In this document: piece after piece, positions 42,196 to 53,501 of the stretch
Numbering within the stretch: position 1 is the stretch's first letter
Layout: every line of letters starts with the position of its first letter
Translations under genes and position numbers: made by a program
Notes under the pieces: model-generated
Seen by the model: the letters and a program-made list of their open reading frames with translations, nothing else
Told to the model about the DNA's origin: nothing
Database searches by the model: none
Source: Escherichia coli
GTDB taxonomy: Bacteria > Pseudomonadota > Gammaproteobacteria > Enterobacterales > Enterobacteriaceae
Assembly (NCBI RefSeq): GCF_011045215.1
Contig: NZ_CP049201.1
Direction: 5' to 3' (one strand)
Length of the DNA: 64,000 nucleotides

Positions 42196-42339
42196 CGCCG
42201 GTGCCCTCCGCTTTCCAGATAAGACGATAATCCTGCACATGCTTTTTACCGGTTTCCGGTACTTTACCCAGCCAGACTTCCTGTAACGGCACACCTGCCG
42301 GAGCCGCAAACGGATCTTCGCCGACCGGAATGTCCTGTT
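42179..42339 (-). pseudogene. 3' fragment of a tail-completion gene (P2 gpS-like position), separated from its 5' part by the inserted element
   Basis: Open frame ...FSFEQDIPVGEDPFAAPAGVPLQEVWLGKVPETGKKHVQDYRLIWKAEGTGDESGG-stop with no upstream start (in-frame stop at 42398-42400); ATGA overlap with gene V. Confidence 0.55.
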
Positions 42340-42348
42340 CAAAAGAGA
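42340..42348. repeat. Left copy of 9-bp direct repeat CAAAAGAGA (putative att core)
   Basis: Identical 9-mer at 53493-53501; both copies sit in the same reading frame of the split gene. Confidence 0.5.
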
Positions 42349-42760
42349 AAGCAAACAAACAAGATAATAAGTTGAATTTAAAGGAATAAAAAAGGCATCA
42401 TTTTTGCTTTTGGTACAAATTCTAGTCCGTATAAACGCGGAAAAATCCGCTAAATTAAGATAAAAAAGATGCTTAGATAGTTACTATGTTTAGCTTCATG
42501 GCTACGGGGAGTAAGTTTGCTCTTTGCTTAATCTCGGTTATGGAAATCCCCATATCGGCATCATGCCCACCAGCGTGACGCATTTTTTTTAATTTCGCGG
42601 GTATAAAAATTTGACGAGGCGGGCGGTCCCATAAGCAATGGGGTGTAGGGATTCCGATCCCCCTGGGGGGGGTATTAAACACCCACCCTATTTAAATACC
42701 GTCTTTTTTGTCACTGTGTGTCACTGGTTGTCACTCTCCGTCACGGTATGCCACCATAAG

Positions 42761-43075
42761 TTAACGTCGTAACCGCTCCGGCTTCTTCCAGTGGTAAGTA
42801 ATTTTTTCTTTCTCCTGGTACATCTGCACGCGGCGACGGTATGACAACATCTCCAGAACTCTGGTGCGTATATTGCGCATATCCACGCCGTTAAGCTCAA
42901 TACCGTCACGGCGCATCACCTCAGCCACCACACGCGCGTAATTTTCGGCTATCACGCTGTCCGGCTGCGTGGCCTCCTGTTTGCCTGCTGGTGGTCTGAT
43001 TCCGGCAGCACGGCGAATCATTTTGAGCATTTCGGCTTCGGTCATTGTCATGGCCTCCGTGGTGATGGAAAACAA
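42761..43075 (-). CDS. Hypothetical protein downstream of element terS
   Basis: 104-aa ORF, no recognised motif; start uncertain (Met at 43075, 43051 or 43045). Confidence 0.4.
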   Translation of the reverse strand: MFSITTEAMTMTEAEMLKMIRRAAGIRPPAGKQEATQPDSVIAENYARVVAEVMRRDGIELNGVDMRNIRTRVLEMLSYRRRVQMYQEKEKITYHWKKPERLRR

Positions 43076-43310
43076 TGCCGTAATTGTGGCGGGTCCTTCC
43101 TGGAAAATGAAACACCGGGGGTGGCCATACGCGCAATTCTTAACTGTTTATGAAAATTTTTCGGGAAAAGTCAGATCCGTTCTTCTTCTCTGTAACTCAT
43201 TGTTTAATGGTAAAATCATCAAAAAAAGAAAGGATCTGGCAGTGGTCATTCTGGGCCCAAAATGACGTTATCAGATCCTTTCTCAGTTTTGTTCAATAAT
43301 TGCGCGGTTG

Positions 43311-43895
43311 TCACTCAGCTCTCTGTTGCCGTAACTTCTCCGGCACGTTTCCGGTTGTTTCCATCAGATAATCTTCCAGAATGCGGGGCAGGTTATCGGC
43401 AGTTTTAGCGCACGCATTACAGGCGCGTGCTGTTTCCCTCCTCAGGCCATCGATCATTGCCGGAGTCATCGCGGGAAACTGCCTTTGCATCGTAAGGGGC
43501 AAGCTATTCATGATGGTTGAAATCTGTTGCGCCAGTTTAGACAGTGCATACATACAAAAGCCGGTATCTATAACCTCTCCTGTCTCCCTGGCGTTCTTCA
43601 GTTCCTGCCCGTCAGCCTGTGCTTTAGTGAGACGGTATCGTTCGTACTCTGTTGTGCCTGGCTGTAAATCTGATTCACCAACGGCACGTAAATCATCAAG
43701 CTCACTGCGGAGTTTTTCTTTTTCGATCTCCTTCTCCCTCTGTACATACCATTCGATCACCTGTGAAGAGTCGAAAGTCACCTCCATACCTTTTCCGCCA
43801 CCAGATACATGGGGGAGCCCTTGCATCTGCCAACGTTCAATTGTGCGCGGATCAACACCGAAAATCTCTGCCAGTCTCTTTTTGTTAACATTCAT
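43311..43895 (-). CDS. Terminase small subunit, lambda Nu1-like (element copy)
   Basis: N-terminus MNVNKKRLAEIFGVDPRTIERWQMQGLPHVSGGGKGMEV resembles recalled lambda Nu1 winged HTH; C-terminal half similar to the prophage TerS at 62051..62560. Confidence 0.8.
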   Translation of the reverse strand: MNVNKKRLAEIFGVDPRTIERWQMQGLPHVSGGGKGMEVTFDSSQVIEWYVQREKEIEKEKLRSELDDLRAVGESDLQPGTTEYERYRLTKAQADGQELKNARETGEVIDTGFCMYALSKLAQQISTIMNSLPLTMQRQFPAMTPAMIDGLRRETARACNACAKTADNLPRILEDYLMETTGNVPEKLRQQRAE

Positions 43896-44039
43896 TTATC
43901 AAATCCTCATCAAAAACCACCTCCGACATGAAACGCCTGAAAAACGGGATTTTCCGGCGTTATGGTGTCGTATGTTTATTATAGTTAATTTAAATAAAAA
44001 CATAATGTTACATGCAAGAAGTACCGACATGCTTTTTCC

Positions 44040-44115
44040 CTGAAAAATTTTCATAAATAGTGAAAATCTGCGCGTCTGCCGCCCCGCGGTGTTTCTGATT
44101 CTGGAAAGGACCCGT
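44040..44115. other. Lambda-like cos site of the element
   Basis: GAAAAATTTTCATAAATAG ... GCGCGTCTGCCGCCCCGCGG ... GGAAAGGACCCG; reverse complement resembles the lambda cos junction (CGCTATTTATGAAAATTTTCC, GGGCGGCGACCT, GGGTCCTTTCC); about 185 bp upstream of terS. Confidence 0.6.
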
Positions 44116-44194
44116 GAAAATTGGGGCGATCACCACCGTTCCGGATACAAAAAAAATCGCGAGACCTTGCCAGCCTCGCGAACGTTCATTTCAG

Positions 44195-44620
44195 TTACTT
44201 AACAGACAGCAACAGCTTTTCATCTTCGGTCAGTCCGGCGTTGCCATCACCGGCTGCTGGCCCAACACATTTCGGGCTGTGCTTTTCCATGTACGCTTCA
44301 AACAGAAAAGCCGTTTTCTTTTCCTGCATCATTGCCTGGGCATCCACGGCAGCCAGTAACGTTTGTGCATAGGTTACTGTCATTACTTCAGAACCACACT
44401 CAATCAGCTTACTGGTGAACTCAGGGTATTTTGATGCCAGCGGTAACGCCTTGATACCCTCTATGCGCTGTTTATCACTCTCAGCCTTTGCAGTAAGCAC
44501 CGTTCGGGCTTCTGTCAGTGATGCGCCATTATTTGCGAGATTTTCCGCAAGCGTCGGGTATTTCTGCGCCTCAGGCAGTGCCATGATCAATGCTCTGGTT
44601 GAATTTGCTTTCTCAGTCAT
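44195..44620 (-). CDS. Hypothetical head-module protein (possible scaffold)
   Basis: 141-aa ORF between decoration-like gene and cos; no recognised motif. Confidence 0.45.
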   Translation of the reverse strand: MTEKANSTRALIMALPEAQKYPTLAENLANNGASLTEARTVLTAKAESDKQRIEGIKALPLASKYPEFTSKLIECGSEVMTVTYAQTLLAAVDAQAMMQEKKTAFLFEAYMEKHSPKCVGPAAGDGNAGLTEDEKLLLSVK

Positions 44621-44634
44621 AAATCACCACAAAA

Positions 44635-44964
44635 TTATTGCCCTAAAGGCTGCACGGAAATACCGGAACCAACAAAAGACGACACTTTTTTCTCGAACGT
44701 GTCCGCTGTATCAGGCCAGTTAATTTCATCGATATTAAAAACCCCGCACTTATAAACCTGTGCGCGGTTTTTTGTGGCCGTGTTAATGTCCGATATGGTC
44801 AGATACACCGCCTTACCGGGTGTACCGTCCCACTCAACCATCAGGCCCGCGCCGTTCTGCATCAGCGGAGTTCTCGCTTTAATTTCTCCGGCACTGGCAA
44901 AACAGGCCAGCGTGCTGACCAGTTCCTGCGTGCCGGAAAGGAATTGCGTGTAAGGTGTTGGCAT
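44635..44964 (-). CDS. Head decoration protein homologue (lambda gpD-like, element copy)
   Basis: RTPLM..VEWDGTPGKAV...YKCGVF..INWPD...FVGSGISV parallels the gpD pattern TPLM..VAWDG...YKSGTF...WP..AF.GTAIS. Confidence 0.65.
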   Translation of the reverse strand: MPTPYTQFLSGTQELVSTLACFASAGEIKARTPLMQNGAGLMVEWDGTPGKAVYLTISDINTATKNRAQVYKCGVFNIDEINWPDTADTFEKKVSSFVGSGISVQPLGQ

Positions 44965-44974
44965 ACGATCCCCT

Positions 44975-46030
44975 TTATTTCACTTCGACGGTAACAAAGC
45001 GACCAATATCCACGGGTACTGGCTGCGGGGCGCTGTGCGTCTGCACGTATTCAATCGCCGGATCGCCCGGTACGATATAATTTTTCGGGTAGTACATCCC
45101 CTCAGAAAATCCCTCGCGTGCCGCGTCCTGATCCATGATGGCACCATAAGCAACAAGGCCTTTATTTTCGGTATTGCCGAAAACCATCATGTTTTGTTTC
45201 AGGAAATATTGCTGCTGCCCGTTTTCGTCGTCATAACGACCGGAATAAACCACGATCGCCACATCACCGAGATACCCCTTGAAGCTGACAACGCCGCCCA
45301 AATCTTTTAGCGCAAGTTCAAGTGACGAGTTTGAACCGCGACGCGTGTCCATTAGTTCGCGGAATCGACGGAACGAGCGCAAAATACGCCAGGCTTCGCC
45401 ACCCATGACGATAATATTTACCGTACCTTCGGAAAAATCAGCGTAAGCCTCAATGTCGCTTATCGGATCAAACGTTTCGGCATCCTGTTTTGACCATTCT
45501 TTCCCGCCAGCCTGCGTAATATGATTGGTTTCGGGTAATCCCCAGTCAATTTCATAACGCTCAATGCCTTCGCCCTCAATAACGTTACGGCCTGTTGTGA
45601 TGGCATTGACCGCCAGCCATTCAACACGCGCTTTGATGGCAGCAAGCTGTTTTTTCTGGCTGTCGTGAACCATTTTTACGCGGCGTAGTGCCGGGGAAGA
45701 CTGACCATTGCCGATCTGTTCTCCAGGCATGCGCATGATTGTTTTGGTGGGATCAATAACGTGTTTGGGCTTCATATAACCCGGCGTGAACGTGTTCGTT
45801 GTGAAACCTTTGTCACGCATAACCTGGCTGCCTGACATTGGAGAACAAAACGGACTCATGACCACGTTTTCAATATCCAGCGTATCAAGTGCAATATCTC
45901 TGGTGCTGAAAGTAGCGACGTTCGGAAAGAACAACGTAGTAAAGAGTGGATTAAATTTAAATTCCGGCACATCTTCGCGCCCGATATTTTTCAGTAGCGT
46001 TGGTGTGCTTACCAGTTGCGGCGCTGTCAT
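44975..46030 (-). CDS. Major capsid protein homologue (lambda gpE-like, element copy)
   Basis: 351-aa ORF; TPGYMKPKH, NHITQAGGKEWSKQDAETFDP, KELMDTRRGSNSSLELALKDLGGVVSFKGY align with the prophage gpE at 55439..56467. Confidence 0.8.
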   Translation of the reverse strand: MTAPQLVSTPTLLKNIGREDVPEFKFNPLFTTLFFPNVATFSTRDIALDTLDIENVVMSPFCSPMSGSQVMRDKGFTTNTFTPGYMKPKHVIDPTKTIMRMPGEQIGNGQSSPALRRVKMVHDSQKKQLAAIKARVEWLAVNAITTGRNVIEGEGIERYEIDWGLPETNHITQAGGKEWSKQDAETFDPISDIEAYADFSEGTVNIIVMGGEAWRILRSFRRFRELMDTRRGSNSSLELALKDLGGVVSFKGYLGDVAIVVYSGRYDDENGQQQYFLKQNMMVFGNTENKGLVAYGAIMDQDAAREGFSEGMYYPKNYIVPGDPAIEYVQTHSAPQPVPVDIGRFVTVEVK

Positions 46031-46266
46031 TACTCACCCCCATGAGGCTGATTCATACCAAGCGCAGCGCGTAAATGGCTGCGTACCATCCAGCCGACTG
46101 ACGGCTTCACCAGGCACAACGGATCAAGGCCGATTTTTTTTCCTGCCTCTGCGTTCTCCTCAAAGCGCGCATTAAGTGCGGCGATAATATCGGGGCTGAT
46201 GTACACGGATACACCGCCCGGCTTCTGTGTTCCCATAAATGAGATTCCTCTTTGACTAAAAAACAA
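46030..46266 (-). CDS. Hypothetical protein upstream of capsid homologue
   Basis: 78-aa ORF, start uncertain; no recognised motif. Confidence 0.35.
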   Translation of the reverse strand: MFFSQRGISFMGTQKPGGVSVYISPDIIAALNARFEENAEAGKKIGLDPLCLVKPSVGWMVRSHLRAALGMNQPHGGE

Positions 46267-46457
46267 ACATAACGAAAAGTCATGTCATGATTTTAATTAT
46301 CGTTGCACTTTTTGCAATATAATTGACTATTGTTGCGAATAATGAAATCATTATGTCGTGGTTTTAATCCTTGTACCACAGAGTTGTTTAGCATTAATCA
46401 CGTTAGCGGCGTGAAATCCCCCGGAACCTCATCCCGGGGGATTTTTTTGCGCACAAA

Positions 46458-46482
46458 AAAGCCGGGAAAAATCCCGGCTTCT
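46458..46482 (-). terminator. Terminator after element ssb
   Basis: AGCCGGGA..TCCCGGCT hairpin followed by TTTTTTGTG on the minus strand, just after ssb stop. Confidence 0.5.
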
Positions 46483-46494
46483 GTCACTCGTTGC

Positions 46495-46917
46495 TTAAAA
46501 CGGTATTTCATCCCCGTACGGATCATCATTTCCCGCCTGTTGTTTTGCTCTGCTCAGTGCATCAGTAGCCTGCCCCTGTTGGCCTTTTTTGCCGCCCGGT
46601 CGCGCCGTTCTGGCACTGATTACACTGTCTGCGATAACCTGCCAGCTCTGCCGCGTTTCGCCGTTCTGGCCTGTCCACTGGCTTACCTGCATGTTACCCG
46701 CCACGCTCACCAGTTCGCCTTTGCGGTGTTTTGCCAGTGCGTCGGCCTGTCTGCCAAACGCCAGGACGGATAACCACATCGTCGCCGTTCCGTCATCTGC
46801 CTGGCTGCACGGCAGGGGAACCGCCATACTCGCCATCGCCATTTGTGTTCCCTTGCTGGTGGTCTTTAACTGCGGGTCAGCCACCAGCCGCCCGTAAGCT
46901 GCTATCTGTGCTGTCAT
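46495..46917 (-). CDS. Single-stranded DNA-binding protein (SSB-like) with acidic C-terminal tip
   Basis: 140-aa ORF; C-terminus ...NDDPYGDEIPF resembles the SSB tail ...DFDDDIPF. Confidence 0.7.
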   Translation of the reverse strand: MTAQIAAYGRLVADPQLKTTSKGTQMAMASMAVPLPCSQADDGTATMWLSVLAFGRQADALAKHRKGELVSVAGNMQVSQWTGQNGETRQSWQVIADSVISARTARPGGKKGQQGQATDALSRAKQQAGNDDPYGDEIPF

Positions 46918-47165
46918 GCTGTCTGCTCTCCGGTTTTAACGTTGATGGTTGTCACCTGTTCCGCTTCGGCAATCTCCCGCTCTGTCAGCGTGGCAAAGTT
47001 TGCCGCCGCTGTGGTCATGAATGCGCTTATCAGTTCGGGATGTGCTTTTGCGTATCCTTCTCCGGCATGGCGGTCTATTGTTCTGATTGCCACCTTTAAG
47101 GCGTGCTCTGTCATGTCTAACGCTTTATATTTTGGCGCTGTCTTATCTCTGGTTTTTTTGGTCAT
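46914..47165 (-). CDS. Hypothetical protein
   Basis: 83-aa ORF, ATGA overlap with ssb start. Confidence 0.45.
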   Translation of the reverse strand: MTKKTRDKTAPKYKALDMTEHALKVAIRTIDRHAGEGYAKAHPELISAFMTTAAANFATLTEREIAEAEQVTTINVKTGEQTA

Positions 47166-47370
47166 TTCTCACTATTCCCCACTTTTTCGCCTCACTTTTT
47201 AAGCTCCCAACATGATTTCCAACCTTGTTTTTTTGTGATTCTAATATGTTGTTTTTCAATGTGTTTTTTATTCCTCACTTTTGAGCCTATATACAGGTTG
47301 AAAAGTGAGGGGCGCGGTTGCTTTTTGTTCAGTTTCTGCTATCCCCTCACTTTTGTGCCTCACTTTTTAC
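47165..47370. repeat. Iteron array with AT-rich core (candidate replication origin of the element)
   Basis: CTCACTTTT at 47191, 47274, 47346, 47361 and inverted AAAAGTGAGG at 47301, flanking an AT-rich stretch (47225-47275), directly downstream of the helicase gene. Confidence 0.55.
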
Positions 47371-48782
47371 AGTGGGCGCACATCATCACCGTCAATAGTG
47401 ATAACGCCGTCTCTTTCCAGCTTGTACAGCCAGCGCCGAAAGTTTTTCATCTCATACCCCAGCTTTTTCATATCATCACGCAATAACGGGATAGTGCATT
47501 TATCGCCGCGCTGTGTGCGTGAACGGATACAGCCCCATAGCGCGGCGTGATTCTCCGTCTTGTTTCCGGCCTCCTCAATGCGCTCCAGTTCAACAGGTGG
47601 GCGCGGCTTATCCACTACCACCAGCGACGTGATTAACTCCTTGTCAGCGTCGATAAAAAGCTCCACCACGCGTAAATCGTATGCGGCCTCTTTCAGTTCC
47701 TCTGCGTCCTTCATTTTGGTGCAGGAGATAACCAGGGCTTCACTGTCTGCACCTTCCCGGCGAATACGGTATTCAGCGTCCAGAGATGCACGAAATGCAC
47801 TGGAACCACGCGCCCCCTTTGTTTCATCCTTGCCGGAATGGTGAACCACCAGTACCGTGGCCCCTGTGCGTCGTTTCAGTTCGTCACATCCACGGATAAA
47901 CGCCCCCATATCCCGCGCGTCATTTTCATCATTACCGCCAAAACACCGCGCCAGCGTATCCAGAATAATCATGCGTACCGGTTTACCCGTTTCCCTTTCA
48001 ACCTGGCGGGAAGCGATGACCATTTCATCAATATCAAACTGTGCTGCCGGAAAAATCGGGCGGTTTACCAGGTACAGATTTTTCACCCGTTCATCATTAA
48101 CGATTTCCCATGCTTTGATACGACGAGGGACACCAATGCCACCTTCACCGACGACATACATCACCGAACCATGCGCCACCCTGCGGCCTCCCCAGTGGCG
48201 ACCCGTGGCAACATGACACGCCCAGGAACACGCGAGGAATGATTTATAGGAACCGCTCGCGCCGTATGTGCTGCACAACGAATTAGCCGGAATCACGCCC
48301 TTAACGACATAATCAAGCTGTGTGTCGTACCCTGCAGATCCAATACTCATTGGTAGCGTGGTTTTTCGCTGGTCGTTTTTTTCTTCCTCCGGTATCTCTC
48401 CGGACCGTCTTTTCTGGCGCTCTCGTTCCAGATATTCGCGCCACCCCTCCCGCTTCTGGCTGTGCATTCCCTCAGGGTAATAATTCGCATCCCGTACACC
48501 TGCCGCTGCCAGCTTTTGCCCGATGGCATTAATATTTGACGGCTTGATGTGGCCTGCCTTGTACAGCCGGACACAATAGCGACCATCGTCGATAATTTTC
48601 AGGTCAGCCAGTTCGTCAAGATGGCTGTCTCCAAGCCATACAGGCGGAACATTGTCGCCAGCAAGTCGCCCGTCCTGCTCCTGCCATTGTTTCGCGTGCG
48701 CCCAGGCATCACTACCCGCAAAAATAATGACTTCGGTCATTTTGTCGTGCGGCTGTTTTTTTAAGTTCGGTGCCAGTTTCAT
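47367..48782 (-). CDS. Replication protein, RepA/DnaB-like P-loop helicase
   Basis: 471-aa ORF with Walker A GASGSYKS and RecA-like core; C-terminal winged-helix-like region. Confidence 0.7.
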   Translation of the reverse strand: MKLAPNLKKQPHDKMTEVIIFAGSDAWAHAKQWQEQDGRLAGDNVPPVWLGDSHLDELADLKIIDDGRYCVRLYKAGHIKPSNINAIGQKLAAAGVRDANYYPEGMHSQKREGWREYLERERQKRRSGEIPEEEKNDQRKTTLPMSIGSAGYDTQLDYVVKGVIPANSLCSTYGASGSYKSFLACSWACHVATGRHWGGRRVAHGSVMYVVGEGGIGVPRRIKAWEIVNDERVKNLYLVNRPIFPAAQFDIDEMVIASRQVERETGKPVRMIILDTLARCFGGNDENDARDMGAFIRGCDELKRRTGATVLVVHHSGKDETKGARGSSAFRASLDAEYRIRREGADSEALVISCTKMKDAEELKEAAYDLRVVELFIDADKELITSLVVVDKPRPPVELERIEEAGNKTENHAALWGCIRSRTQRGDKCTIPLLRDDMKKLGYEMKNFRRWLYKLERDGVITIDGDDVRPL

Positions 48783-49078
48783 TTTTTACCCCTGAATGCG
48801 TTAATCATGTTTTTCATTTTCTGAATGTTCGCCCGTGCCTTTGCGTTGCTGGTGGGCTGTTTGCATGGCGTGGCCTGTATCAGTGAAAAATCACGCCGGA
48901 ACTGATAAACAGGCATCACGCAGTCATAGCCGTACCCATCACGGCGGTAAGTAACGCACCGTCCCGCCACGCTTTTAATCGTTACCGTGCCGCCGTAGTT
49001 ATCCCGGAAAATATCGCCGGGGCGGATTTCAGGCCGAGCGGGGCCGCTGGCAGTAAAGCCAGAAATTTTCTGTTTCAT
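48779..49078 (-). CDS. Hypothetical protein
   Basis: 99-aa ORF, ATGA overlap with helicase start. Confidence 0.4.
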   Translation of the reverse strand: MKQKISGFTASGPARPEIRPGDIFRDNYGGTVTIKSVAGRCVTYRRDGYGYDCVMPVYQFRRDFSLIQATPCKQPTSNAKARANIQKMKNMINAFRGKK

Positions 49079-49286
49079 GGTTTTTATTCCTCTGCGCGGG
49101 TCTTGTTGTGTATTTCCATAACCGCGTTTAATTCATCAATAACCGGGGTTAACAGAGTGCTGAAAGCAGAAAATAAATCCCCCCCCCTGTTCGGCATGAA
49201 CTTCGGTTAATTTAATTAATACCGCTTTCATTTCCAGTGCCCGGTTTAATGCATTCTCAGAATGAATAAGAACATCGAAAGGGATT

Positions 49287-49520
49287 TTATCCATGGCTTA
49301 CATCCTCCGGGAATTTTCTTCTGTAACGCGCCTCTGCAACATATTCCGCATAGTCCGACGCAATATTGAGAATCTCCACACCCTCTGACCTGTAGCCACT
49401 GGTACTGATAAGAAAAAATGCGGCTTTCATCATGTCGGCAACGCATAACAACGCATCGCCTGTATGTTCCGGTGCGCCATCAAATTCCTGTTTCAGGGCA
49501 TTAAAACGATCATCACGCAT
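49287..49520 (-). CDS. Hypothetical protein (may be the 3' part of one gene frameshifted at a C9 tract)
   Basis: 77-aa ORF; begins inside poly-C/G tract 49523-49531. Confidence 0.3.
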   Translation of the reverse strand: MRDDRFNALKQEFDGAPEHTGDALLCVADMMKAAFFLISTSGYRSEGVEILNIASDYAEYVAEARYRRKFPEDVSHG

Positions 49521-49753
49521 AACCCCCCCCCATTTTCACAATCAGTAATCAGGATGGCTTTAGCCTCATTCAGTGCCATATCAGCACTAAATTGCATAAC
49601 AGCCAGTGAGTGAGGAACGAAATCCCCGGCATATTCTGTTTCGCTGGTGGCGTGCTTATGTGCCCTGTCCGCGATAACAGAAATATCAATCAGCGCGTGC
49701 ATCAGCGTTTTGATGGCTTCGGCGGCTGCGTCCTGACGGGTGTTATTGCACAT
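49493..49753 (-). CDS. Hypothetical protein (may be the 5' part of one gene frameshifted at a C9 tract)
   Basis: 86-aa ORF ending just after poly-C/G tract. Confidence 0.3.
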   Translation of the reverse strand: MCNNTRQDAAAEAIKTLMHALIDISVIADRAHKHATSETEYAGDFVPHSLAVMQFSADMALNEAKAILITDCENGGGLCVMIVLMP

Positions 49754-49949
49754 GGCGCACCTCCTGACGAATACGGGCGGCGAATACCATCACGCAGCCA
49801 TCAGGAGATTGCTGACGCGCTTCCTGTTCGTTGGTGGCCTCAATGGTAATCACGCGCGGTTGTGCCGTGCTCAGGGCGATAAAACGCCAGATGTATTTAT
49901 TCAGGTTGTGCGAGTCCCGCCCTTGCGGGTGTGTGGTATGATTTAACAT
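49743..49949 (-). CDS. Hypothetical small protein, divergent from the RHH gene
   Basis: Start taken at MLNHTTHPQ (ATG 49949, RBS GAGGTA); long upstream extension in ORF track rejected. Confidence 0.4.
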   Translation of the reverse strand: MLNHTTHPQGRDSHNLNKYIWRFIALSTAQPRVITIEATNEQEARQQSPDGCVMVFAARIRQEVRHVQ

Positions 49950-50043
49950 AGCTACCTCGATAATCTTGCTATCGTTGGTGGTTAGACGCCCTGCATGTGT
50001 ACCACCACTGCGGGGCGTTGCGTTTTTTGATGTGCACGTGTTA

Positions 50044-50088
50044 AGGTGTACACCTAACGAACCAAAACATAACGCCATAGGTGTACAC
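50044..50088. promoter_or_regulatory. Two palindromic operator-like sites GTGTACAC in a divergent promoter region
   Basis: AGGTGTACAC at 50044-50053 and 50079-50088, second abutting the RHH start codon. Confidence 0.5.
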
Positions 50089-50283
50089 ATGTCAACAGTT
50101 ATTAAGCGCGATAAAAAACAAAAAGGCACAGGAAAGGCCCCACCATTCCATATGCGTATAGTCCCTGAATTGAAGGAGCAGTTTGATAACGAAGCCAGTA
50201 ACGATGGAGTAAGTCTTGCCAACTGGCTTAAAGAGTTAGGGCGCAAAGAACTGCTACGGCGCGGAATTGAACCAAAGGGATAA
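50089..50283 (+). CDS. Ribbon-helix-helix (Arc/CopG-like) DNA-binding protein
   Basis: ORF track 49966..50283; start taken at MSTVIKRDKKQKG (ATG 50089); APPFHMRIVPELKEQFDNEASNDGVSLANWLKELGRK fits the Arc-type RHH pattern. Confidence 0.6.
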   Translation: MSTVIKRDKKQKGTGKAPPFHMRIVPELKEQFDNEASNDGVSLANWLKELGRKELLRRGIEPKG

Positions 50284-50340
50284 CTATCACTAATGTCGCA
50301 ACCAGAGGAGTTGCGACTCCGAAGATTACATAGGAAATTA

Positions 50341-50823
50341 ATGATTATGGGATTCGTCATTTTCATTGCGATCGTAATTTTATCCATTTACGTTCTTACC
50401 AAATTATTTATTTCAGAAAATTCACACGACAAAATTAGAGCCGAGGCATCCAGAAGAATTGCACAAGAAGAGGCCGAACGGGCTAAGTTGTATGAAGAGA
50501 GAAAGGAATCATCTGATAATCCTGTTAATAAACAAAAACGAATAACAACACACGAAGATCATTTTTATATGGATATTCATGGTGGTCACAAATATATATG
50601 TGTTGATGCTAAGTTAGTTTTTGAATATGCAAATTTAAAACACAACTATTTTCTTCACGCCTCTCACTATTTCCCTGAGTTAGAGTATGTTTATGGAAAA
50701 AACGAACATGGGAAAATAGTTAGAGTAGATTTGTACGATAAAAAAATTCAAGCTATTAACCCCGATACTGGCGAAAAAATACCTGGTGTGAGACGTTATC
50801 TACGACAGCACAAGATAAAATAG
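50341..50823 (+). CDS. AT-rich membrane-anchored protein of unknown function
   Basis: ORF track 50293..50823; start taken at MIMGFVIFIAIVILSIYVL (ATG 50341, RBS AGGAAA); single N-terminal TM helix; markedly lower GC than neighbours. Confidence 0.5.
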   Translation: MIMGFVIFIAIVILSIYVLTKLFISENSHDKIRAEASRRIAQEEAERAKLYEERKESSDNPVNKQKRITTHEDHFYMDIHGGHKYICVDAKLVFEYANLKHNYFLHASHYFPELEYVYGKNEHGKIVRVDLYDKKIQAINPDTGEKIPGVRRYLRQHKIK

Positions 50824-51238
50824 CCCACCGGAATTTTTTTCCGGTTACGCTTTGCCCACCAGCCGCAAATGTGGCATTGTTGGCTATGCTCATGCGTTGG
50901 GGATAACGCGCAATTAGTGTTGAAGGGCCACCGTAGCGGGTGGCCTTTGTTTTGCCTGTTATCCGGCAATTGTGGCGCTTCGCCACACGGTTGATATAAT
51001 CCTCCTGCACAGATTCATTTTTTGCGCAGCAGGTTAATTGTTCGCAAGGGCGCTCCGGCAACTGGGCGCTTTTTGTTTTTACCCACCAGCACAATAAAAA
51101 TCTTCATTTTCCATTTTTGCAAAATTTCATGCTTTCCGGACGACTGGCCATATGTCATTTTTTAGCAGAAGATTTTGCCTTGCTGGTGGGTAGCTTCCCG
51201 GTTAACACGATGTACCGTATAATCAGCACCGCACGCGG

Positions 51239-51820
51239 TTACTGAATACGCTCACCAAAGTAAAACTCAGGCTGATATTCACGTATCAGCCTTTTTTCTT
51301 CTTCCTCCAGCTCACGCTTTTTGCGCTTACATGCCTGTAGTTCCCTCCCCTTCTCGCTGGCACTTATCTGGTATTGCTCTTTGCGACGGGAAAAATCCTG
51401 TAATGCGCCCCACGGGATACCATAAGCCCCCGTTTTTCTGATACCCGGTATCACATTTCTGAATACCCAGTTACTGAAACGATGGGCGAACGTGCCAGGA
51501 GTAGCAGCTTTTCGACTTCTGGCAATCAGCTTGTAAAAACCAGATTCAGAAACGACGCTATGATTTGGATTTCCGCGAATACCGTAAGTTAAAGTTACGG
51601 TATTACTTTCATCATCATCCAGAGCTTGCAACGCCATGCGTGAATTAGTCAGTTCCAGCGCAGCGCAGACATCCTTTGCAACAAACCACGGATCGCCGTT
51701 CAGATACACCACGCGAACGTTCACACTATCAAAGCGCAGAACGACCAGATCACGAATATCACAGAATTTTTTCACTGGACGTGCGTCACCCTTGCCAGTC
51801 ACGGCAATATTTTTATTCAT
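51239..51820 (-). CDS. Bro-N domain protein (antirepressor-like)
   Basis: DIRDLVVLRFDSVNVRVVYLNGDPWFVAKDVCAALEL...GFYKLI..S....A..F..WV fits Bro-N. Confidence 0.7.
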   Translation of the reverse strand: MNKNIAVTGKGDARPVKKFCDIRDLVVLRFDSVNVRVVYLNGDPWFVAKDVCAALELTNSRMALQALDDDESNTVTLTYGIRGNPNHSVVSESGFYKLIARSRKAATPGTFAHRFSNWVFRNVIPGIRKTGAYGIPWGALQDFSRRKEQYQISASEKGRELQACKRKKRELEEEEKRLIREYQPEFYFGERIQ

Positions 51821-51870
51821 CGCTTTTTACCTCACATACAAAAAACCCCGCATTGCGCGGGGTATATCAA

Positions 51871-52080
51871 TCATTGACGATATTCATTAGCTTGTTTTCG
51901 TTGTCTTTCCAGCCACGATGCAACATCATCACGATGCCATGCGTTGCGTCGCCCAATCTTAAAGGGGCGTGGAAATTTATTTTTTTCATCATTCATGAAA
52001 GCGTAAAATGCACTCATTGCACCGTAGCGAAGCTCTGCCATCACGTCTTTGGTAAATAGAATATTGCCGTTAGTGCTCAT
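51871..52080 (-). CDS. AlpA-family regulator / excisionase-like protein
   Basis: 69-aa ORF immediately downstream of integrase, HTH-like core. Confidence 0.65.
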   Translation of the reverse strand: MSTNGNILFTKDVMAELRYGAMSAFYAFMNDEKNKFPRPFKIGRRNAWHRDDVASWLERQRKQANEYRQ

Positions 52081-52086
52081 ATTGCC

Positions 52087-53319
52087 TCACATATTCACTA
52101 CTTTTAGCCCCTGATGACCACCAGAACGACGGATAATTCCCTTTCTGGCATCATCAACAAAATCACCAATCCATTGCATCATGATCTTACGTTGCTCAAA
52201 ATATTTTGAGCGATTATAAATATCACGAATAGCATCGCCGCTTTTATGGGCTAATGCTGCCTCAATAACATCTGGGTTAAACCCTTCTTCGTTGAGTAAC
52301 GTACTCCACATAGCCCGGAATCCGTGGGCAGTTGCAATACCATAAAATTGTCCATCTTTGAAACACTTATGACGCAACACGCTTGATATAGCTTTCCCCG
52401 GATTCTTTGGAGAAAAAAATATATAGCTACCACATTTTATTTTATTCATTTCATTTAAAATATCCACGGCTTGCCGTGAAAGCGGAACTACGTGTTCACG
52501 TCCACACTTCATTCTTTCAGGGGGAATTGTCCAGATACAATTTTCTAAATCAATTTCCTCCCATTTTGCCTCCCTTGCTTCACATGGTCGTACCATAGTG
52601 AAAATCTGGAACAAAAGAGAGCATCTTATAGAGATATTACTTGTAGTATCCCACCAGTTCAAAAATTCTGATAACAGTTCAACTGGTAATGCCTTTAATG
52701 GGGTATGTTTTTTTGTTGCAAATGCATTTCTTATTGTTGATAGCGGGTTATTTTTAATTACTCCAGAGTTAACACAGTAATTCATTATTTCATTAATTTT
52801 TGAAATAATTTTATCCAATACAGAATTACGATCAGAAAATTGATTAAGCAATGGTATGACCACAGGCGCGGTCATATCATGTATGTACACATTTCCAAAT
52901 ACAGGGATTATATGTCTGTTCAATAACTCTTCTATTGTCTGTAAAGTCGACAGTCGCAAATCACCTTTTTTCTTAAAATTAAACCATTCAATTGCAATAG
53001 CACCAAACGTCTGTAAGTGCTTTCTTTTAGCCTCGAGTCGTTTTTCTGCCCGGTATGATAACGGATCTATATCCCGTGCCAACAATCTGCGCAGATTATC
53101 GCGTTCTTCTCTGGCTTCAACCAGCGTGAAATCGGGGTATCGCCCTATAGTGTATGTTTGCCGCTTCTTCGTAAAAGGTTGTACATAACGAAAACGCCAC
53201 GATTTACTACCGGCTTTTGACACATAAAGCAAAAGCCCAAACCCATCATATAGAGCGTAATCTTTCTCTCGTGGCCTGGCGCTTTTTACCTCTGATGCAG
53301 TAAGAGGCTTCACCGACAT
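52087..53319 (-). CDS. Tyrosine recombinase, P4-type integrase
   Basis: ORF track 52087..53418; start taken at MSVKPLTASEVKSARPREKDYALYDGFGLLLYVSKAGSKSWRFRY (ATG 53319); C-terminal catalytic region with HGFR and Y. Confidence 0.85.
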   Translation of the reverse strand: MSVKPLTASEVKSARPREKDYALYDGFGLLLYVSKAGSKSWRFRYVQPFTKKRQTYTIGRYPDFTLVEAREERDNLRRLLARDIDPLSYRAEKRLEAKRKHLQTFGAIAIEWFNFKKKGDLRLSTLQTIEELLNRHIIPVFGNVYIHDMTAPVVIPLLNQFSDRNSVLDKIISKINEIMNYCVNSGVIKNNPLSTIRNAFATKKHTPLKALPVELLSEFLNWWDTTSNISIRCSLLFQIFTMVRPCEAREAKWEEIDLENCIWTIPPERMKCGREHVVPLSRQAVDILNEMNKIKCGSYIFFSPKNPGKAISSVLRHKCFKDGQFYGIATAHGFRAMWSTLLNEEGFNPDVIEAALAHKSGDAIRDIYNRSKYFEQRKIMMQWIGDFVDDARKGIIRRSGGHQGLKVVNM

Positions 53320-53492
53320 ACAAGCACTCCAATACAAATTTTTTCTAGTCCATGCGCTGGTTCCTTTTGCCAGAATACTGGCGATAAAAAAGCGAAAAAC
53401 AAGGAACAATGCACACAATGAAAAAACCGCAACTTATTGAATAAGAAGAAAAACAAAAAGAAACGGTAACGAAAGATAATGATTGCATAGTC

Positions 53493-53501
53493 CAAAAGAG
53501 A
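53493..53501. repeat. Right copy of 9-bp direct repeat CAAAAGAGA (putative att core)
   Basis: Identical to 42340-42348; about 170 bp from the integrase start. Confidence 0.5.

Follow-up and report, generated by a model that had tools for sequence, protein, structure and literature searches.

The two G tracts and their host element

The window analysed here is a 64,000-nucleotide stretch of Escherichia coli DNA (contig NZ_CP049201.1 of assembly GCF_011045215.1). Nine consecutive C occupy plus-strand positions 49179..49187, which corresponds to a G9 run in the sense of a small minus-strand gene, referred to here as gene A. A preliminary description of this DNA had reported that a minus-strand ORF runs into the tract and stops shortly after, and direct reading of the letters confirmed both the tract and its consequence. 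ORF 49136..49294(-) encodes a 52-aa product (MDKIPFDVLIHSENALNRALEMKAVLIKLTEVHAEQGGGFIFCFQHSVNPGY) composed of MDKIPFDVLIHSENALNRALEMKAVLIKLTEVHAEQGGG followed by 13 out-of-frame residues to the stop, while the rest of gene A lies in another frame (ORF 49084..49197(-)). In silico deletion of one G yielded a single 69-aa gene A ending in ...NKTRAEE, in line with the protein of about 70 aa that had been predicted for a tract one G shorter and with the full-length homologues of 68-70 aa present in databases. Its stop codon occupies 49084..49086, near enough to the expected position of about 49082.

Tract 2, another G9 in the coding sense, shares the strand of tract 1 and lies 344 bp from it, where the N-terminal and C-terminal halves (N-half and C-half) of gene B, the gene next upstream of gene A, meet. 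Neither this second C9 (49523..49531) nor the phage-satellite nature of the surrounding element featured in the preliminary description. The features of the two genes are as follows.

49179..49187, minus strand: tract 1, G9 in the coding sense, within the loop codons of gene A; an out-of-frame (+1) allele
49084..49294, minus strand: gene A, frameshifted; phrog_2196 family; 69 aa if G8, 52 aa as read
49523..49531, minus strand: tract 2, the second G9 in the coding sense, at the N-half/C-half junction of gene B
49493..49753, minus strand: N-half ORF of gene B, 86 aa, ending in ...CENGGGLCVMIVLMP*; phrog_5146 / phrog_2512; predicted two-helix hairpin
49287..49520, minus strand: C-half ORF of gene B, 77 aa; phrog_24341; three predicted helices

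Composition alone is only suggestive as evidence that these C9 runs are unusual. The window contains five C6 runs, no C7, no C8 and two C9, and dinucleotide-preserving shuffles gave an expectation of 0.44 nonamers, with at least two in 12 of 100 shuffles; it is comparison with relatives that carries the weight. In K-12, 8-bp runs of G·C have been described as outliers already (PMC8510543).

Both tracts lie within an element of ~11.1 kb with the following content.

42349..53501, no strand assigned: PICI-type satellite holding both tracts
42337..42348 and 53490..53501: att core, an imperfect 12-bp direct repeat, GT(T/C)CAAAAGAGA
52087..53418: P4-type integrase (Phage_integrase and Arm-DNA-bind_3)
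51871..52080: AlpA-like gene (PF05930; its 20.3 bits fall just short of the Pfam cutoff of 21)
51239..51820: BRO-N anti-repressor
49743..49952 (start approximate), minus strand: Icd-like small gene, first of the leftward early operon (phrog_6196 and RefSeq annotation of relatives)
48779..49078, minus strand: DUF4222 gene, directly downstream of gene A (PF13973, 85 bits)
47367..48782, minus strand: RepA-type helicase (AAA_25), the satellite replication gene (Pfam and PHROGs)
46495..46917: SSB
44975..46030: lambda E-like capsid gene (Phage_cap_E)
44635..44964: D-like decoration gene
43311..43895: Nu1-like terS, small terminase (Phage_Nu1)

The early/replication operon is directed leftward and tightly packed, comprising the Icd-like gene, gene B, gene A, the DUF4222 gene and the RepA/AAA_25 helicase. 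By the published SatelliteFinder definitions of the PICI and cfPICI core sets (PMC10085698), the gene content predicted from Pfam and PHROGs matches identifies the element as an enterobacterial PICI-type satellite. It shares with the enterobacterial PICIs an integrase, a capsid-like gene and a small terminase within ~11 kb, together with a putative AlpA-like regulator and a putative counterpart of the replication gene, but differs in carrying a RepA/AAA_25 helicase, which matches the helicase part of primase-helicase PHROGs, instead of a classic primase-replicase, in the sub-threshold AlpA match and in its position inside a prophage gene (PMC10085698). Portal, head-tail adaptor/connector, large terminase, tail and lysis genes were all lacking among the scanned ORFs of 42349..53501. 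Identity as a cfPICI was rejected, there being no portal, terL or adaptor and 11 kb leaving no room.

Comparison with E. coli strain C5, in which the satellite flanks are contiguous, placed the insertion point inside a hypothetical gene of a Mu-like prophage, between its baseplate and head genes. The head and packaging genes of this prophage are lambda-like, matching in type the capsid, decoration and Nu1-like genes of the satellite, so that it may serve as the satellite's helper. The non-coding region 42655..42745, which lies at the end of the satellite on the downstream side of the Nu1-like gene, contains a palindromic CCCCC-T-GGGGGGGG that includes the only G8 in the window; behind it come four GTCAC repeats spaced ~10-11 nt apart. 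This region may be a cos or terminase-binding region, and its G8 could be a third length-variable run. Upstream of gene B, the 214-aa maximal ORF at 49743..50387(-) matches an Icd-like / 'transcriptional repressor' PHROG over its last ~85 residues only, and overlaps a plus-strand ORF (49966..50283) that is annotated in relatives as a member of the YlcI/YnfO family. The plus strand of the window as a whole displays a strong C excess (17,673 C against 14,624 G), which is consistent with the location of most prophage and satellite genes on the minus strand.

Tract length and coding outcome among relatives

Comparison of tract length among related elements, which the preliminary description had suggested as a check, revealed a range from G5 to G10 for tract 1. 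This census covered 31 elements, namely 14 complete E. coli genomes, eight contigs from a viral collection, eight metagenome contigs and the window, and some of these public assemblies may contain homopolymer errors of their own (older 454 or long-read-only data). Of 5,426 complete E. coli genomes, 14 have gene A with the tract, which makes this variant rare; the region as such is present in roughly 1,245 complete E. coli genomes. The tract is in frame in 12 of the 31 elements (39%), giving a product of 68-69 aa, and out of frame in the other 19, in which the first alternative frame gives 47-48 aa and the second 51-52 aa. A large protein database contains the same classes of product: in-frame gene A clusters of 68, 69 and 70 aa carry one, two and three glycines, respectively, and truncated clusters of 46-52 aa represent both alternative frames, one of them with four glycine codons. 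Tract 1 lengths of at least G12 are implied by protein records. Homologues that also end at the tract, which the preliminary description had named as evidence against its reading, are indeed common, but in-frame homologues coexist with them.

The A-G9 allele of the window recurs in five independent elements with differing tract 2 lengths, and its carriers include complete genomes as well as SPAdes metagenome contigs. Two pairs of elements without a single difference in 739 flanking nucleotides differ in tract 1 alone, with G7 in L004 against G9 in L014, and G8 in L041 against G7 in L094. A third pair, L097 and L099, has 3/739 flank differences, yet both tracts differ.

Gene A homologues that do not carry the G run provided a control for these truncations. 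Distant homologues of 75 aa (~60% identity) and 77 aa (~37%) read through the tract position, and most related satellites (loci L005-L091) encode at the gene A position a tract-free 77-aa homologue (MRDIYHETIDRAF...SHSEN...). The longest G/C run in this tract-free gene is 4, and 63 of 65 elements (97%) carry the gene at full length, which argues that the gene A position is normally kept intact and that the truncations are due to the tract and not to general decay. An AlphaFold model of gene A (pLDDT 83) predicted a two-helix hairpin with helices at residues 6-32 and 38-68 and a loop at 33-37, where the tract lies. The tract-encoded loop is also the sole length-variable stretch in the alignment of gene A homologues, and its predicted position would explain the tolerance of one to three glycines. 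Both gene A subgroups retain the G run.

Tract 2 was surveyed by a gapped pattern scan, which yielded 87 viral-collection loci; together with the E. coli loci and the window, these comprise 84 distinct haplotypes. Their distribution and the coding outcome at gene B are listed below.

G7: 20 haplotypes; halves fused into a protein of 154 aa
G8 (commonest): 28 haplotypes; split, with a start/stop overlap ATGCGTGA of a geometry equal to that of the gene B/gene A junction ATGGATAA
G9 (as in the window): 20 haplotypes; split, the N-half being nine codons longer and overlapping the C-half start by 28 nt
G10: 4 haplotypes; halves fused into a protein of 155 aa
G11: 2 haplotypes; split
G8 followed by one T: 1 haplotype; fused
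Interrupted variants: 9 haplotypes; split

Tract 2 is accordingly in frame in 25 of 84 haplotypes (30%) and out of frame in 59. Its length differs in 57% of the pairs that have only one or two flank differences in 423 nt. Inside each of five groups of identical 950-nt haplotypes the tract 2 length agrees, which indicates that the length readings are reproducible. Both halves of gene B are open in ~95% of the haplotypes, and the pN/pS of each (N-half 0.64, C-half 0.43) is the same whether the allele is fused or split. Non-G bases account for 1.2% of the G runs, compared with a third-position diversity of ~0.3 at 16-45 nt distance, a comparison affected by ascertainment in that the search pattern fixed the immediate flanks.

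More distant relatives clarify what tract 2 interrupts. In relatives of gene B at 40-50% identity that are devoid of the G run, the halves are separate genes, with an N-half of 77-84 aa ending in ...HHA* or ...DHA* and a C-half of 68-76 aa whose initial Met corresponds to query residue 79. PHROGs likewise assigns the complete gene B protein, its N-half and its C-half to different families. On both counts tract 2 marks a gene junction. The C-half has its own ATG 2 nt past the G run, for which the run would probably also act as a Shine-Dalgarno element. Judged from these alignments, the two halves are ancestrally separate, translationally coupled genes, and the predicted role of tract 2 length is to set whether they are split or fused. 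Among the top 120 protein clusters, 58 have the fused junction CENGGV and 48 have CENGGGV, the forms that go with G7 and G10. In the structural model of gene B (pLDDT 78), a low-confidence linker at tract 2 connects a hairpin domain to a three-helix domain. The placement of tract 1 in a loop and of tract 2 in an interdomain linker by these models would account for the tolerance of in-frame length changes.

Database searches yielded little on what the two proteins do. Pfam gave zero matches for gene A and gene B, PHROGs returned only families of 'unknown function' for both, and a Foldseek search of the gene B model against PDB and BFVD reached a best E of 1.8, i.e. no fold match. When fused gene B served as a tblastn query, 50,697 phage records gave zero matches, and so these records offer no characterised phage context for gene B.

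The variation of the tracts within the family is real and not a product of sequencing error, as follows from the range of lengths, from the agreement of replicated haplotypes and from the occurrence of the same alleles in assemblies of differing kinds. For the window itself, the preliminary description had left open a homopolymer sequencing error; with an error in sequencing or assembly, the true tract would be G8 and gene A intact. G/C nonamers are difficult for several chemistries, a single-base error would account for the frameshift of gene A, and the collections searched contained no near-identical element to confirm the tract length: the closest relatives are ~95% identical (L073) with none above 95%, and L103, which shares the G9/G9 combination, is a different element with ~87% identity. 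Against this option, the ~21 kb of flanking prophage aligned to strain C5 at 96-99% identity with nine gap openings, none of them in homopolymer runs, despite the many A/T runs of 7-8 in the window. The recurrence of the identical A-G9 allele in five independent elements, a population span of G5-G10 that goes far beyond plus or minus one, and the consistent tract lengths of replicated haplotypes all point the same way. An error in the window is disfavoured by these data to the point of being very improbable, and its G9 is almost certainly a natural out-of-frame allele.

Slippage, tolerance and recoding as candidate explanations

Both tracts are real, change faster than any other site in the element, and produce heritable variants across the E. 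coli population, on or off for gene A and split or fused for gene B. The explanation that we regard as probable is that both are genuine hypermutable G runs that change by slipped-strand mispairing. Polymerase slippage would add or remove G in tract 1, which would explain why relatives carry G5 to G10. With tract 1 in frame, the loop of the 68-70-aa protein would contain one to three glycines, and the two other frames would give truncated products that keep helix 1 only. Slippage in tract 2 would lead from two proteins at G8 and G9 to one fused protein at G7 and G10. Switching within lineages would presumably be reversible. In the window allele, the genes downstream of gene A are expected to be unaffected, since the early stop of gene A lies just 58 nt before the start of the DUF4222 gene, which has its own GAGG motif.

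The slipped-strand switch proposed in the preliminary description is borne out as far as the variable tract is concerned, given the G5-G10 range in 31 elements and the flank-identical pairs that differ in it, but not as a functional switch, about one third of the alleles being in frame. At 39% and 30%, the in-frame fractions cannot be told apart from the 1/3 that would arise if frame were not under selection, which fits a tolerated hotspot as well as it fits a switch. The main rival explanation accordingly holds that the tracts are tolerated mutational hotspots of no regulatory role, situated in dispensable accessory genes whose frame is unselected, so that an out-of-frame allele would be the first step of decay. 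Beyond the match of 12/31 and 25/84 to the neutral expectation, the fairly high pN/pS values (0.43-0.64), the use of a tract-free gene A homologue by most elements in the family and the failure of Pfam and fold searches to assign a function are all in keeping with such dispensability. This account is less easily reconciled with the coding sequence on either side of the tracts, which has stayed open and conserved even between deeply diverged alleles (pS about 0.4-0.47), or with the intact gene A position in 97% of tract-free elements. Stabilising synonymous changes would be simple, yet they are rare, and the G runs are nearly uninterrupted, at the 1.2% of non-G bases given above, in two diverged gene A subgroups and in gene B alleles. 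Taken together, we consider a tolerated hotspot possible but doubtful.

A different explanation invokes programmed recoding, in which slippage of RNA polymerase or of the ribosomal P-site tRNA-Gly would yield full-length gene A and both fused and unfused gene B from any allele, making the genomic frame irrelevant. Such recoding would fit the observations that all three frames are common without penalty and that out-of-frame alleles keep their coding halves conserved. A conserved, fixed out-of-frame arrangement is the hallmark of programmed frameshifts, but no such arrangement is conserved here, all three frames being present at both tracts. Moreover, no stimulatory element was identified, and the efficiency expected on such runs would be low. 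A precedent is the variable poly-G run of mycobacterial frdB-frdC, which gives all isoforms from both genotypes, attributed by the authors to transcriptional slippage (PMC7835394). In E. coli transcriptomes, however, slippage insertions within homopolymers were confined to runs of A or T, and runs of G or C were judged by the authors not to be prone to slippage (PMC5574713). The type known to slip in E. coli is a run of about 9 or more A or T; because the tracts here consist of G, transcriptional slippage is marked down on these data. Recoding as a whole is thus quite improbable.

Returning to slipped-strand mispairing of the DNA, a more far-reaching proposal is that the two tracts are contingency loci of the satellite, whose populations, mixed for gene A on/off and gene B split/fused variants, would hedge its interaction with different helper phages or hosts. 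The slipping would then take place during growth of the lysogen or in the replication burst after induction. We put this forward tentatively, as a rather unlikely extension.

Relation to known systems and significance

The tracts resemble the simple sequence repeat (SSR) contingency loci of Neisseria, Haemophilus, Campylobacter and Bordetella in several respects. Both have a homopolymeric G/C tract of 7-11 nt within an ORF, and the tract length is polymorphic in close relatives, shifts the frame and changes much faster than the flanks. The uninterrupted G9 runs of the window are of the size seen in such loci (about 7 nt or more). Purity of the tract across diverged alleles may be a further shared trait, with the reservation that the immediate flanks were fixed by the search pattern used here. 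The differences concern the host and the products. The host is E. coli, whose known phase variation proceeds by DNA inversion and methylation (PMC4272514, PMC8510543), inversion being the only form reported in systematic work on this species (PMC4272514). The predicted products are small, cytoplasmic-looking helical proteins of a mobile element and not surface structures or restriction-modification systems.

Contingency loci have lately been proposed in phages, with poly-A runs in T2 agt and T4 rIIA and poly-G runs in the receptor-binding proteins of Fletchervirus, and bet-hedging was suggested as their role (10.1101/2025.10.21.683753). These loci likewise consist of hypermutable homopolymers in a virus-like element, and mixed progeny arise there by polymerase slippage. 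Those phages are lytic and their runs are mostly of six or more A, whereas here the element is a PICI-type satellite in its integrated state, and two neighbouring genes of its early operon carry G runs of 7-10; satellites and prophages are outside the coverage of that preprint.

The closest parallel to tract 2 is the frdB-frdC locus of Mycobacterium bovis/BCG (PMC7835394), where a G run at the 3' end of the upstream gene also toggles between separate and fused products, the fusion has a short Gly-rich link and the length varies among strains. The frd tracts are longer (10-22 G), and the organism and the proteins differ. A further distinction of tract 2 is the downstream ATG located 2 nt after the run, with G8 recreating the ancestral start/stop overlap ATGCGTGA. 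Within the library searched, no account was found of the present tracts or of repeat-driven variation in PICIs.

For annotation, the consequences are immediate. PGAP calls genes A and B as intact, as two genes, as truncated or as absent (L001-L004, L092-L101), and the outcome tracks tract length exactly. The gene B ORFs 49493..49753 and 49287..49520, for example, are annotated in relatives either as one gene of 154/155 aa or as two genes. The inconsistent annotation of genes A and B in E. coli genomes is therefore explained by differing tract lengths, and automatic 'correction' of such tracts as sequencing errors should be avoided.

The usual view of E. coli is that it lacks phase variation driven by repeats, and phage satellites are not known to use such variation. 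Repeat-driven hypervariable genes are already known as a kind; the setting here, two neighbouring tracts in a phage satellite of E. coli, is unusual. If the tracts do act as switches, satellites would diversify their early-gene repertoire stochastically, as has lately been proposed for lytic phages. Should the contingency reading prove true, phase variation driven by repeats would have its first described example among PICIs and one of its rare examples in E. coli.
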